A DNA stretch of 28,437 bases, taken from IMG/VR virus record IMGVR_UViG_3300026224_000011, positions 1 to 28,437 of that record. One strand, written 5' to 3'. Shown in pieces: positions 20,293-24,724 of this stretch. Source of the stretch: a virus (Duplodnaviria > Heunggongvirae > Uroviricota > Caudoviricetes). Made by a program: the position numbers and the translations under genes. Within the stretch, counting starts at the first letter, position 1. Every line of letters begins with the position of its first letter. The notes below the pieces were generated by a model that saw only the letters and a list, made by a program, of their open reading frames with translations, did no database searches and was not told the DNA's origin.

Positions 20293-22335
20293 TTAACGGT
20301 TGTTTGTGCCGTTTTTCTTTAAATTGCGTTCGCGTTCAGATGCGAATAAATAAAGTTCTTCTTTTTCCTTTTTCTCCGGGCGCTCCAGTCCATATCCCAG
20401 ATTAAAGTCAGGCTTCTGCGTAATGGCCGGGGTAAGCTCGCGTTTAGCTTCTTCGATTTTCTGCGTGGCCCGTGCAATGCGGCCCCTGACGCGTTTCTCC
20501 AGTTTTTGCTCGATAACTGGTTTAGCGAAGGCATCAACCTTGTTACCGTTCCAGATGGCATCGCAGATATAAGAGCCATCAGCCCGCCGGACAATGACGC
20601 TGTTTGCATCATGAATATCGTAACTGACCCTGACTTCATTCCCGTGCTCTGCGGCCAGCTCATATGAGTAATAAATATTGTTGAATAACTGAATTTCCCC
20701 GCGAAATGTTTTGCGCGTCACTTCCGGTCTGAACATTTCATGCAGTTCTTCCGGCGACAGCATGTCGATTTCAGCCTTTTGCTCTTTTATCAGTTTCCGG
20801 CGATACGCTGCCGGGCTGTAATATTCGCCATCCTCTTTGCGAGGAAGGCTGCTGTGTGGCCGGTTGTTATAGCGTCTGACCTCCAGCTCTATGGCTGCCA
20901 TCAGTTGCTCAAAGGTAGGGATTTCATCCCTCGCCTTAACCTGCCGTTTTGTCAGCTCTTTCCCTTTGTGGGTGGCCTTAATGGCTGACTGCATAATCCG
21001 TTGCTGCATCATTACGGTTTCCTTGTCTGCATCCCTTGCGCAGTACGTCTGGAAACTCAGAGCCACGTCTTTGGGTATTCCTTTGTTTGCCCGTTCAATC
21101 ACCCCGCGCCCCTGCGGGTTACCTGGTATCCCCGTGTGATGTTCCACACCCAGACGGGGCAGAATCCCGGTAATATCGGCATCAAGCACCCGGTTTTTTT
21201 CGCCGCCCCCGTTATCGGAGTAATAAATCAGCGGTATCCCGTGCTGTGCCATGCCGTAACGCAACGCATCAGCAACAGCTATCACGTTCTCCGACAGGGA
21301 CAGTGACCAGCCCACAACAAAGCGTTGCCCCGCATCCATAACCAGCGTCACTTCTGGCCGGAAAATATTGCCGGTCAGGGGGTTAAACGCGGTCATTTTC
21401 ATACAGTGACCATCCCCGACCCATACCGCATTAACCGGTAATGATGTCCAGTCGCGCCGCACAAAGGGATTGAGCGAACGCCAGGCTGAACCGGTGGAGC
21501 GGAAACGCTCTTTAACAATCACCGGGACGCTGCTTAACACCCGTCTTACTGCGTGAACTGAAGGCAGTGCCGCCAGCATTCCCGCATCATTCGCGTGTTT
21601 TTCATGCCACCAGGCTGAAAACTCACGATACGCATATTCAACAGTCGGGCGCTTCCATGAGCGATAGAACATAAAGAAATCGCTCAACCACCAGACCTGC
21701 TCCCACGGTGTTCCCTTATGATGACCGGGAGCCAGTAACGCCAGTAACTGATTGGCATCACCGCGCGCCATCACCCAGCTGGAGTACCAGCTATCCAGGC
21801 TGCCGGTGCTGACACCGGTTCGCTTTCCCTGACGTGCATTTGCAGTATTCGCTGCTTCGATAATGCGGTCAGGTAACGCCCCCATGCGCACACCATCAAC
21901 GATGTGCTTTAAAGCGGCCTTCCTGGTCATTCCGGCATACTCGCGCAGCTTATGCACTTCAGTAGCCAGCAATATCCGCGCATCAGCGATGGCCTTTTGC
22001 TTGTCGGTCAGTGACTGGACTTCGCGTAATGCCAGCTCCGGGCATTTGACCATCACCTCCAGTTCATCGCGAACGGCGACGTTTTTAACTGCTTTCTGCT
22101 CAACTACGGCGGGCAGTTGTGCATCTTCCAGGACCTGATGAGTCAGGCGCTTACGTAAAACTTTCTGCGCTTCAGCGGGCAGGCAGTCGATGTGATACTC
22201 GAATGCTTTGGTGCCTTCGCGCTTGCGCTTCCATTCTGGGTGCGTCTCTGTGATCCGATTGAGCGTCCAGCGCACCCCCTGAACTGTACCGGGCAAACCA
22301 GGAAGACCGGCCAGCTCATTGGCTGAATAAAACAT
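20293..22335 (-). CDS. MuA-like DDE transposase
   Basis: 680 aa; Mu A-like size and architecture; ATG overlaps the ner stop (TAATG). Confidence 0.85.
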   Translation of the reverse strand: MFYSANELAGLPGLPGTVQGVRWTLNRITETHPEWKRKREGTKAFEYHIDCLPAEAQKVLRKRLTHQVLEDAQLPAVVEQKAVKNVAVRDELEVMVKCPELALREVQSLTDKQKAIADARILLATEVHKLREYAGMTRKAALKHIVDGVRMGALPDRIIEAANTANARQGKRTGVSTGSLDSWYSSWVMARGDANQLLALLAPGHHKGTPWEQVWWLSDFFMFYRSWKRPTVEYAYREFSAWWHEKHANDAGMLAALPSVHAVRRVLSSVPVIVKERFRSTGSAWRSLNPFVRRDWTSLPVNAVWVGDGHCMKMTAFNPLTGNIFRPEVTLVMDAGQRFVVGWSLSLSENVIAVADALRYGMAQHGIPLIYYSDNGGGEKNRVLDADITGILPRLGVEHHTGIPGNPQGRGVIERANKGIPKDVALSFQTYCARDADKETVMMQQRIMQSAIKATHKGKELTKRQVKARDEIPTFEQLMAAIELEVRRYNNRPHSSLPRKEDGEYYSPAAYRRKLIKEQKAEIDMLSPEELHEMFRPEVTRKTFRGEIQLFNNIYYSYELAAEHGNEVRVSYDIHDANSVIVRRADGSYICDAIWNGNKVDAFAKPVIEQKLEKRVRGRIARATQKIEEAKRELTPAITQKPDFNLGYGLERPEKKEKEELYLFASERERNLKKNGTNNR

Positions 22336-22571
22336 TACGCCGCCTTACTGGCATACCGGCTTGGCCAGATCTCCGCAGGTTCCACACCAATAGCATCGGC
22401 TATGATGCGTTCATATTTAGGGCATGAGCGATACAGTGCATTTTTTAAAGAGTCTTTTTTTAGACCAGCGCGTTCAGAAAGTTCACGCAATGTAAAACCT
22501 TTGGTGTGCACAGCGGCAACGATGTACTCGCGGTGCCAGTCTTTGTTCATTACTTCATTTCTAACCATCAT
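22335..22571 (-). CDS. Ner-like DNA-binding regulator
   Basis: C-terminal ...EIWPSRY... and NKDWHR match Mu Ner; start placed at ATG 22569-22571; the ORF-track extension to 22709 is rejected. Confidence 0.75.
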   Translation of the reverse strand: MMVRNEVMNKDWHREYIVAAVHTKGFTLRELSERAGLKKDSLKNALYRSCPKYERIIADAIGVEPAEIWPSRYASKAA

Positions 22572-22739
22572 TAGGTTACCCTTAAAAGTTATCCGTGCGG
22601 ATAACACCGCCGTGTTATCCCTTCGGATATAAGTATTGATCCACAAATAGAAAATTACAAGCTTTCTTTTCTTTCTTTGGTGAAAAGAAAGTCTTTTTGA
22701 AGAAAGCACATGTAAATCAACACGTTAGAAGGAAAGAAA
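22572..22739. promoter_or_regulatory. ner-c divergent control region with operator-like repeats
   Basis: Overlapping inverted repeats ttatccg tg cggataa (22589-22604) and ggataacac cgcc gtgttatcc (22599-22620); CTTTC/GAAAG repeat array 22661-22735. Confidence 0.5.
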
Positions 22740-23390
22740 ATGAGTAAACAAATCGCTGATGATTTTTCCTTTTCTCAGGATAGAAAAGAAAGCATTCAAG
22801 ACAGAATCAAACAACTGATTGGCACCAGGAGCCTGCGTAAAGCCACCTCAGACTGGGGATTACCGTACTCGACCATAAATAACTACTTTGAAAAAGGCAC
22901 GACACCTGGCCTAAATGTGGTCGCTACAATAGCAAAATTAGAGAATGTATCACTGGAATGGCTGGTCTACGGTGAGAACAGAAGTGTTCCAATGGTAGAA
23001 AAATCAAGGGTGACTACAGAAGACGTTAACCGCCCCGATACAAGTATTGTTGACGAAATACTAAGACGAGCCGCTCCAGAAGATAGAGAGCGTCTTATTG
23101 ATATGCTTTGTTGTATTGGTATCAAAGGAGTCCTGGAACGCCTACAACAACCCACCAGGCAAGCGAAACAGGCCTACAACGACCTAGACGAACAGGAGAA
23201 TGCCATCAGAAGCCTGAACATCAGGGAATCGCTAAAAGACGCCATATGTATGGCATTAGATGGTAACGAAGAAATTGACAAAGAGATTTTGCGCCGCATC
23301 GAATCTCATATACGAGCTAGGTCGCCAGGTGGTCAGACCGTTGCCACGCCGGAGCAAGAAACGAAGCCTGTAAACAAGAAATCAGCATAA
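22740..23390 (+). CDS. prophage repressor (c-like)
   Basis: 216 aa; ATG after AAGGAAAG RBS; HTH-like N-terminal region; divergent from ner as in Mu; AT-rich. Confidence 0.65.
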   Translation: MSKQIADDFSFSQDRKESIQDRIKQLIGTRSLRKATSDWGLPYSTINNYFEKGTTPGLNVVATIAKLENVSLEWLVYGENRSVPMVEKSRVTTEDVNRPDTSIVDEILRRAAPEDRERLIDMLCCIGIKGVLERLQQPTRQAKQAYNDLDEQENAIRSLNIRESLKDAICMALDGNEEIDKEILRRIESHIRARSPGGQTVATPEQETKPVNKKSA

Positions 23391-23702
23391 GCGCCTCGTT
23401 TTGGCGGGGCGTATGCTGTTAGCTAATCAGCAATAACCACAACAAAACCGAACACAACAGATGAGAACAAATTGAGGAAAACGGGCAAGGATAAAACACT
23501 TTTTAAAAGCATTTAAAACCCGTTAAGTTTGTAGCAGAACCAGATCAAAAGCGCCCAGAAAAAAGCGCAAAAAAAAGCGTTTTTGGTCATTTCTCACAAA
23601 TCCGCCCAGAATCACACTAAATCACCACACCCCGCGCCACACAAGGCTTGCAGGTTCTACCAGGCTGCACGAACTCCGCCCAGAATTGATCACCACCCCA
23701 CA
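23391..23702. repeat. prophage c-end terminal region (attL-equivalent) with candidate transposase-binding repeats
   Basis: cgcccagaa at 23552-23560 and ccgcccagaat at 23602-23612 and 23677-23687; terminal dinucleotide CA at 23701-23702. Confidence 0.55.
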
Positions 23703-24724
23703 ATCTCGGTGGGAACGCCCATCATGTTGTAGGAAACAGCGGAGAACCAGTCGAGATTGGGGAACATCTTTTTGCTCTCCCACATCACCGTTTCCAGGCG
23801 ATCGGCAATGTTGTACATCTTCAGCGAGCCGCCTTCCTGCGAGAGCTGCTTCGCCACACGCTTGATCACCTGATGGCGCGGGTCGGCGATGGTATAAACC
23901 GGATGGCCAAAACCAATCACCACTTCTTTGTTTTCCACGCGCTTGCGGATATCCGCTTCGGCTTCGTCCGGCGTTTCGTAGCGTTGCTGGATCTCCAGTG
24001 ACACTTCATTCGCCCCGCCGTGCTTCGGCCCGCGCAGTGCACCAATCGCGCCGATAATGGCTGAATACATATCAGAGCCGGTGCCCGCAATCACCCGGCT
24101 GGTAAAGGTGGAGGCGTTAAACTCATGCTCGGCGTACAGCACCAGCGAAATTTGCATCGCCTTTTCCCAACTTTGCGACGGCTTTTCACCATGCAGCAGA
24201 TGCAGGAAGTGACCGCCGATAGAGTCGTCATCGGTTTCCGGCTGGATGCGTTCGCCGTTGTGGCTGTAGTGATACCAGTAGAGAAGAATCGAACTCAGCG
24301 ACGCCAACAGTTTGTCGGCAATATCCCGCGCGCCGGAGACGGTGTGCCCCTCTTTTTCCGGCAGCGTGCAGCCGAGCGCGGAAACGCCGGTGCGCATAAC
24401 ATCCATCGGGTGCGACGCCGCAGGTAAAGCCTCCAGCACGGTACGCACGTTAGCCGGTAAACCGCGCAGGGCTTTCAGTTTCGTTTTGTAAGCGGCGAGT
24501 TCGTCACGGGTCGGCAGTTTGCCGTGGATCAGCAGATGCGCCACTTCTTCAAATTCGCAATGTTCTGCGAGATCGAGAATATCGTAGCCGCGATAGTGCA
24601 GGTCGTTGCCGCTTTTGCCTACGGTACAAAGCGCGGTGTTACCCGCCGGAACGCCAGAAAGTGCCACAGATTTTTTTGGTTTAATGACATGGGTACTGTT
24701 TTGCAGGATCGTTGTGTCGCTCAT
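23690..24724 (-). pseudogene. prpC: 2-methylcitrate synthase, C-terminally truncated by prophage insertion
   Basis: 344-aa ORF matches PrpC through ...NMMGVPTE, then IVGW-stop encoded by phage DNA; native PrpC is about 389 aa (recalled). Confidence 0.9.

Follow-up and report, generated by a model that had tools for sequence, protein, structure and literature searches.

In phages Mu and D108, Ner turns down early transcription, acting over roughly +1 to +40 of the early transcript, and the two phages differ jointly in c, ner and the 5' end of A. The Mu operator consists of O1/O2/O3 with the consensus CTTTTPyNPu, and the operator region doubles as a transposition enhancer situated about 1 kb from the left end of the phage. 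Here, we describe the counterpart of this control region in a 28,437-nucleotide (nt) stretch of viral DNA, positions 1 to 28,437 of IMG/VR record IMGVR_UViG_3300026224_000011 (hereafter, the window), which carries most of a Mu-like transposable prophage. The region under study is the whole interval between the divergent ner and c genes (22572-22739, 168 bp), about 1 kb from the phage left end. Transposase A, Ner and an AAA+ B-like protein are encoded on the minus strand and the repressor on the plus strand.

We consider it probable that this interval is the early control region, an operator/enhancer-type switch, of the prophage and that it is composed of two functionally separate halves, a ner-proximal half for Ner and a c-proximal half for the repressor. 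This reading draws on the anatomy of the interval, the enrichment and conservation of its repeats, their co-segregation with particular genes and the families of the encoded proteins. A first-pass annotation of the sequence had noted two overlapping perfect inverted repeats next to ner and a run of CTTTC/GAAAG repeats next to c, had likened the layout to the Mu immunity switch with motifs different from those of Mu, and had proposed a distinct immunity specificity. Its interpretation was largely right, being supported in part, and its association of the TTATCC repeats with Ner and the CTTTC repeats with the repressor fits the comparison with related prophages described below. The repressor, however, is not a homologue of Mu c.

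Relatives of the region were found in 60 of 5426 complete Escherichia coli genomes (~1%), including that of the enteropathogenic strain E2348/69, as well as in IMG/VR contigs, in genomes of Edwardsiella and Sodalis and in two isolated phages of Yersinia, vB_YpM_5 and vB_YpM_6. A scan of a genome collection with Ner returned mostly chromosomal SfsB-like genes and only four close relatives. We typed the variants by the DNA-binding domain of the repressor as A (the window), A2, B (E2348/69), B2, C (vB_YpM_5), C2, D, E, F and G.

The two perfect inverted repeats on the ner side are present as annotated. The first pairs GTTATCCG (22588-95) with CGGATAAC (22598-605), giving 8-nt arms separated by a 2-nt gap, and the second pairs GGATAACAC (22599-607) with GTGTTATCC (22612-20), giving 9-nt arms separated by a 4-nt gap; GGATAAC is common to both. 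A fourth half-site, CGGATAT at 22624-30, had been overlooked, and with it the region contains four half-sites of alternating orientation (Table 1). The same array can alternatively be read as a 16-nt palindrome repeated in tandem, with the starts of the two copies 26 nt apart, that is, palindromes P1 (22588-605) and P2 (22614-30) of 16-18 nt together with the inner inverted repeat at 22599-620. When one mismatch was allowed, TTATCCNNNNGGATA matched five times in the window, with four of these matches in the ner-side region, against a mean of 0.33 in shuffled sequence; none of 100 whole-window shuffles reached five matches.

The conservation of these half-sites follows Ner. Ner is the same protein in every E. 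coli copy, and their DNA from the ner start to ~22644 is near-identical, with one base differing in E2348/69, so that the ner-side DNA is kept in that strain although its repressor shares no more than 50-55% identity. Where Ner is 91, 86 or 73-75% identical, the TTATC/GATAA half-sites are kept or slightly changed, while the 2-4-nt centres and the bases between sites vary, GGCG being replaced by GCAG, CGCC, ATCC or CAGC. The pattern TTATC-N6-GATAA was found in nearly all loci with Ner 73-100% identical, at a distance of 18-33 nt upstream of the gene, but has a single match among ~130 other fetched loci. Locus L078 has one extra match elsewhere, and L030, L079 and L080 carry variants without an exact match. 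With Ner 73-100% identical, the half-sites are kept, or nearly so, regardless of the type of repressor. Their most likely role is that of operators by which Ner would turn down ner-A-B, for which EnrR, the nearest relative of solved structure, provides a precedent (see below).

Two further observations concern the DNA next to ner. The sequence GGTTACCC at 22575-22582 overlaps the ner ribosome-binding site and differs from the GTTATCC half-site by a single mismatch, and types C and D read GGATAAA at the same position; it may represent a fifth, weak Ner half-site. Distant Ner homologues (~50% identical; L042, L051, L053 and others) have unrelated upstream DNA, and a tandem palindrome pair is often found just before their genes, as with AGCTCTAAAGAGCT and TAGCTCAATCGAGCTA in L053. 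Autoregulation in the Ner family may generally use such a two-dyad plan.

On the c side, the run of CTTTC/GAAAG repeats annotated at 22661-22735 is present and far exceeds chance expectation, but its copies at 22671-75 and 22700-07 are not conserved, and the array continues ~55 nt past the annotated right boundary into the coding region of c. It contains two palindromes, Oa and Ob, which flank an IHF-like site (Table 1). The arms of Oa are 100% complementary, as determined by an inverted-repeat search, and the outer arm of Ob is 93% complementary to 22661-75 over 15 nt. The pattern CTTTTC-N(4-14)-GAAAAG has only two matches in the 28.4 kb, at 22666-87 and 22769-88, where 0.01 would be expected. 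In addition, five of the six AAGAAAG matches in the window, and all three exact copies of CTTTCTTTT, fall within 22662-22792. Ob also carries GCTTTCTTTTC on the minus strand (22793..22783).

Table 1. Positions of genes, candidate regulatory sites and the phage end in the window.
Feature	Position	Strand	Description
Transposase A gene	20293..22335	minus	680 residues; PF09299 (Mu-transpos_C), and PF02316 at residues 7-140
ner gene	22335..22571	minus	78 residues; PF13693 (HTH_35), E = 9e-26
Candidate Ner operator	22588..22630		Four alternating half-sites: TTATCC 22589-94, GGATAA 22599-604, TTATCC 22615-20, GGATAT 22625-30; based on enrichment and conservation
Candidate early promoter (Pe-like) for ner-A-B	22632..22660	minus	-35 TTGTAA (22660..22655), 17-nt spacer, -10 AATACT (22637..22632); based on sequence reading and positional conservation
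Oa (O2-like), candidate repressor operator	22662..22691		30-bp palindrome, CTTTCTTTTC (22662-71)-N10-GAAAAGAAAG (22682-91); abuts the candidate -35
Further CTTTT/GAAAG copies	22693..22707		CTTTTTG 22693-99 and AAGAAAGC 22700-07; poorly conserved
IHF-like site, AATCAACACGTTA	22715..22727	plus	Perfect match to WATCAANNNNTTR; between Oa and Ob
c ribosome-binding region and A/G-rich repeat copy, AAGGAAAGAAA	22729..22739	plus	Conserved in all types; inverted relative to 22667-78
Repressor gene c	22740..23390	plus	216 residues; N-terminal CI-type helix-turn-helix, PF07022
Ob (O1-like), second palindrome	22766..22793		In c codons 9-18; TTCCTTTTCT (22766-75)-N6-AGAAAAGAAA (22782-91)
Phage left end	23547..23702		Terminus ...CCCCACA at 23702; three 15-nt direct repeats AAAnCCGCCCAGAAT at 23547, 23598 and 23672

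The individual c-side elements differ in how widely they are conserved. The 9-nt arms of Oa, CTTTCTTTT and AAAAGAAAG, show no change in any type-A relative or in type A2 from Edwardsiella, but the intervening 12 nt take several forms within type A (ACCAAAGAAA, ACCAAAGCAA, TCTAAATCAA and ACCAAAATAA). Oa is missing from type B, even though the Ner and the transposase N-terminus of type B are identical to those of type A. Every repressor type has an intragenic dyad equivalent to Ob, in which neither the length nor the sequence of the spacer is constant. The middle CTTTC (22671-75) varies among phages of the same repressor type and AAGAAAGC gives way to other sequence in L006, L007 and L012, which are of the same type; the copies at 22693-22707 are probably not essential sites. 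The perfect IHF consensus is one of two matches in the window, and all 13 variant loci examined have, at the homologous position and in the same orientation, a match with no more than one mismatch. In ten of these it lies 25-28 nt before the c ATG; the offsets are different in types C, C2 and G, whose c starts are uncertain. The repressor N-terminal peptide (D)FSF...(K/G)KES is conserved in most types and its codons form the arms of Ob, so conservation of the protein and conservation of a DNA site are confounded at 22740-22800.

Comparison of pairs of types, in percent identity, separated the two halves of the interval. Between types A and B, Ner and transposase residues 1-75 are both 100% identical and repressor residues 1-80 are 50% identical, and the ner-proximal DNA is 97% and the c-proximal DNA 61% identical. 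The corresponding values for C and D are 100 (Ner), 97 (transposase), 48 (repressor), 93 (ner-proximal DNA) and 45 (c-proximal DNA). For A and A2 they are, in the same order, 91, 69, 78, 82 and 80, and for B and B2 they are 86, 61, 71, 81 and 85. The c-proximal DNA, including Oa, therefore tracks the repressor, and the ner-proximal DNA tracks Ner and the transposase. The swapped block spans ~22645 to about codon 105 of c. These sequence comparisons support the proposal that the DNA-binding domain of the repressor and the DNA from ~22645 to the c start together form an exchangeable immunity module. The Ner half cannot set immunity specificity, as it is near-identical in E. coli prophages with different repressors. 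The distinct immunity specificity proposed in the first-pass annotation would consequently be confined to the c-proximal half, which on these alignments is the only half that can define it.

Among the E. coli genomes, 21 are type A and 15 are type B, and none has two copies of one type. E. coli TUM9812 (NZ_CP128926.1; L159 and L160) has a degraded type-A copy, in which the transposase is truncated and c and ner are intact, together with an intact type-B prophage. By sequence, E. coli harbors at least two types of predicted immunity module, with both present in this one strain. The co-occurrence of A and B in one genome and the lack of same-type pairs are consistent with heteroimmunity. Strains AVS0151 and STEC316 each have a second copy of the ner region that is neither type A nor type B.

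Types B and D have dyads of their own. In type B an inverted repeat, CCATATATAGCCCA and TGGTCTTTATATGG, flanks the -35 of the promoter (L004, the E2348/69 prophage, 842-855 and 900-913), and in type D there is an analogous 29-nt dyad (L024, 2377-2436); these dyads may be type-specific operators. The type-B CCATATA...TATATGG repeat around the -35 is broken by single-sided changes in L008 and L009.

Between the two halves lies a candidate early promoter for ner-A-B (Table 1), proposed from its positional conservation only. In the aligned variants, most types have at this place two hexamers 17 nt apart, one resembling a -35 and the other, AT-rich, resembling a -10, with pairs such as TTTACA-17-AATACT, TTTACT-17-AAATAT and TTTACT-17-TATTGT. 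Pe, the mapped early promoter of Mu, reads TTTACA-17-TATCTT in the Mu sequence. If 22632-22660 is the promoter, the early transcript would start at ~22625-28 and the half-sites would occupy roughly +1 to +40, matching the region of Ner action in Mu and D108. A GATC (Dam site) at 22638-41 abuts the putative -10 and is retained in nine of ten variant types, including in L079 despite its different -10. This site may link early transcription to methylation state.

Based on these features, we infer the following series of binding events. After induction or infection, the early promoter would fire and Ner would accumulate from the early transcript. With its half of the interval placed between the putative -10 and the ner ribosome-binding site, Ner would bind the four TTATCC-type half-sites just past the transcription start, probably as two dimers or four monomers, and would block initiation or promoter clearance, turning down ner-A-B as in Mu and D108. 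In the lysogen, the CI-type repressor would occupy Oa, whose CTTTCTTTT arms adjoin the -35, and Ob, ~100 bp away within its own gene. IHF bound at 22715-27 would bend the DNA between Oa and Ob such that repressor oligomers could bridge the two sites, and this bridging would shut the early promoter and probably autoregulate c. The Oa-IHF-Ob segment may double as a transposition enhancer, since the transposase keeps a Mu-type N-terminus and both the CTTTTC core and the IHF site are Mu-like.

Several points weigh against this reading. The early promoter matches the consensus at only 8 of 12 positions, which is below the scan threshold, and a consensus promoter scan of 22300-23700 identified no sigma-70-like site. 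Inspection of the plus strand by eye gave no credible c promoter. The candidates TATAAG (22628-33) and TAGAAG (22726-31) were rejected, as they either had no -35 or were not conserved. Co-segregation of the c-proximal DNA with c can be explained in part by physical linkage. The type-A prophage of the double lysogen TUM9812 is degraded. In addition, every repressor type has Ob and A/G-rich elements of the AAAGAAA kind, which therefore do not single out the bases that determine specificity, and the shared copies could serve the transposase and not the repressor. In the literature that we searched, we found no description of operators, protein binding, footprints or transcripts for this phage family.

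The shared copies lead to the alternative that survives best, namely that the CTTTC/CTTTTC repeats around the IHF site are mainly a transposition enhancer for the N-terminal domain of the transposase and that the repressor reads other, type-specific bases. We regard this as possible but somewhat unlikely. The transposase has PF02316 at residues 7-140 and its N-terminus aligns with that of MuA, whereas the repressor has no homology to the PF02316 domain or to Mu c, and yet the CTTTTC core, an 11-mer within Ob and the IHF site are all Mu-like. Ob and AAAGAAA persist in types A and B, which have an identical transposase N-terminus and different repressors, and the segment lies ~1 kb from the left end, as does the enhancer of Mu. 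However, Oa is present in A and A2, whose transposase N-termini are 69% identical, and not in B, where that N-terminus is 100% identical to that of A; it follows the repressor, which argues that at least Oa belongs to the repressor. The 11-mer shared with Mu is only marginal, as 66 of 2000 shuffles do as well. Furthermore, the recognition helices are similar between repressor types (STINNYFEKG versus STLNNYIHKG), and shared core half-sites would therefore be expected for the repressors too.

A combination of the two ideas is that Oa-IHF-Ob is a Mu-type enhancer read by the transposase, and that the part of Mu c is now played, on overlapping sites, by a CI-type repressor unrelated to it. We put this forward still more tentatively than the preceding alternative. 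If it were true, immunity specificity would be uncoupled from enhancer specificity, and phages could exchange immunity modules while keeping their transposase and Ner, unlike the situation in Mu and D108.

For the ner-proximal half, we also considered whether the TTATCC dyads might act as RNA, forming a long stem-loop at the 5' end of the ner-A-B leader with an effect on the stability or translation of the mRNA. The folding data are a further point against a role of these dyads as Ner operators: the predicted fold of the 67-nt leader has an energy of -24.9 kcal/mol (z = -5.7), pairing holds in 87% of cells over ten variants, four pairs are changed on both sides and few or no shuffles match this. 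Nevertheless, any alternating palindromic half-sites would give such a signal. The register of the fold is different in types C and D, of which type C is that of an isolated viable phage (vB_YpM_5), and in L080 it is no better than in shuffles (z = -0.5), yet the TTATC/GATAA half-sites stay. There was no Rfam family match, even at a permissive threshold, and transcription of the full element hinges on a predicted start site. We therefore judge the RNA explanation to be improbable, and favor Ner operators as the function of the dyads.

That the repeats are incidental, reflecting low-complexity polypyrimidine/polypurine DNA and a chance DnaA-box-like sequence, is very improbable: the c-side region is A/T- and homopurine-rich and TTATCCGCA on the minus strand matches the DnaA box TTATCCACA at eight of nine positions, but the palindromic arrangement is unique to this region in 28 kb, where 0.01 to 0.33 would be expected, and the arms are conserved while the spacers vary. 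The DnaA box was rejected as a feature in its own right, as there is a single 8/9 match and its CACA part varies between relatives (TTATCCGCG, TTATCCGTC and TTATCGGTA).

The assignments of the flanking genes are consistent with a Mu-like early region. Ner scored 90.1 bits against PF13693 (gathering cut-off 25), placing it in that family, and its sequence alignment with Mu Ner showed 43% identity (E = 3e-19). Its best match in the PDB was EnrR (7f9h, E = 6e-17), followed by Mu Ner (1neq/1ner; 1neq E = 9e-13). Against the SfsB equivalog model it scored 58 bits, with a cut-off of 150, indicating that the protein is not SfsB. In near-identical E. coli prophages it is annotated as WP_000989761.1. 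The PF02316 domain of the transposase is the Mu DNA-binding domain of the enhancer-binding type, and over 616 residues the protein is 21% identical to MuA, with the N-termini aligned.

The only domain match of the repressor was to PF07022, at residues 21-80 (27.4 bits, cut-off 22), which we take to be a helix-turn-helix (HTH) of the coliphage 186 CI kind. The repressor also matched PHROG 3037 ('transcriptional repressor', E = 1e-59), and its C-terminal half, which has no family assignment, is common to different immunity types. It has no solved close relative in the PDB (best match E = 0.14), no significant sequence similarity to Mu c and no BLASTP alignment with the N-terminus of the transposase of its own phage.

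The starts of ner (ATG at 22571, minus strand) and c (ATG at 22740) agree with the RefSeq annotation of near-identical prophages. The ner stop and the transposase start overlap at 22335-22338 in an ATGA-type junction, which is annotated in the same way in all E. coli relatives and suggests translational coupling.

The left end of the phage was placed at 23702 because the similarity of five E. coli prophages, which occupy five different insertion sites, stops exactly after ...CCCCACA at that position. The three AAAnCCGCCCAGAAT repeats nearby look like transposase end-binding sites and are candidate analogues of L1-L3. Overlapping terminator-like hairpins on both strands (23551-23584; GCGCTTTTTT... 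and AAAAGCGC...), ~160 nt downstream of c, coincide with one of these end repeats. The prophage breaks prpC (2-methylcitrate synthase), and an open reading frame at 23690-24724 on the minus strand runs from host into phage DNA and ends ...GVPTEIVGW*. Near-identical prophages are in or beside ycgB, mhpT, eutC, araJ, agaF and the tail genes of another prophage, indicating that the family has many different, apparently unselective insertion sites, often within genes.

Together, these data provide a concrete, predicted map of the lysis-lysogeny switch of active Mu-like prophages, which places candidate operators, an early promoter and an IHF site and delimits an immunity module. That a Mu-type architecture can be combined with an unrelated repressor is useful for considering the co-evolution of immunity and transposition control, and may help to predict superinfection immunity groups from sequence.

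Of the described systems with which the region can be compared, EnrR, E. coli SfsB (Nlp) and the Ner proteins of Mu and D108 belong to the same PF13693 fold family as Ner of the window. EnrR of Edwardsiella (PDB 7f9h/7f9i) forms a close-packed dimer on short palindromes, and chromatin immunoprecipitation (ChIP) placed one of its two highest peaks upstream of its own gene (PMC9023278). Its ChIP consensus is AT-rich (AATAAATNATTTATT), however, and is not TTATCC-N4-GGATAA. The Yersinia phages vB_YpM_5 and vB_YpM_6 (Muvirus; PMC10434027, which contains no operator analysis) have the same control-region plan in isolated, viable phages, and the type-C version in vB_YpM_5 matches IMG/VR locus L018 at all but a few bases. 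Relative to the window, these phages are 41% identical in the repressor, 45% in the transposase and 74% in the ner-region DNA, and they differ in having other c-proximal DNA and one remodelled TTATCC half-site. The window repressor resembles other PF07022 CI-type repressors in its HTH, but its context is that of a transposable phage and is not P2/186-like.

The region can also be compared with that of Mu itself. As the first-pass annotation had recognized, the layout of the divergent c/ner region is Mu-like, which is borne out by the gene order, by the phage end at 23702 ~1 kb away and by the IHF consensus next to c. The predicted sites of the window follow the Mu plan of c, O1, IHF site, O2/Pe, Ner sites and ner, with c divergent from ner-A-B. 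In both, an IHF consensus is near the c start, that of Mu (TATCAACGCGTTA) being 17 nt from its c ATG, although the site in the window has the opposite orientation. CTTTTC-type repeats are present on either side of the IHF site, one group lying in the 5' end of c, where the 11-mer TTCTTTTCTAT, within Ob, is common to both phages. The early promoter of Mu and the candidate promoter of the window have the form TTTACA/TTGTAA-17-weak -10, and in the window candidate Ner sites separate it from ner. Ner itself is homologous to that of Mu, and the transposase has an N-terminal domain of the Mu type. The annotated difference in motifs from Mu thus holds for the Ner sites, as the TTATCC half-sites are unlike the Mu sequence in the same interval, but not for the CTTTTC core and IHF site on the c side. 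The repeats of the window are palindromic, whereas those of Mu are mostly direct. A further difference is in the repressor, which has a CI-type HTH unlike Mu c or the transposase N-terminus, so that the DNA-binding domain shared between repressor and transposase (PF02316), a hallmark of Mu, is absent from this phage. The operator architecture of Mu would appear to have been retained while the repressor was replaced by one of an unrelated fold, and the switch is a variant of the well-known Mu-type plan and not a new kind of biology.

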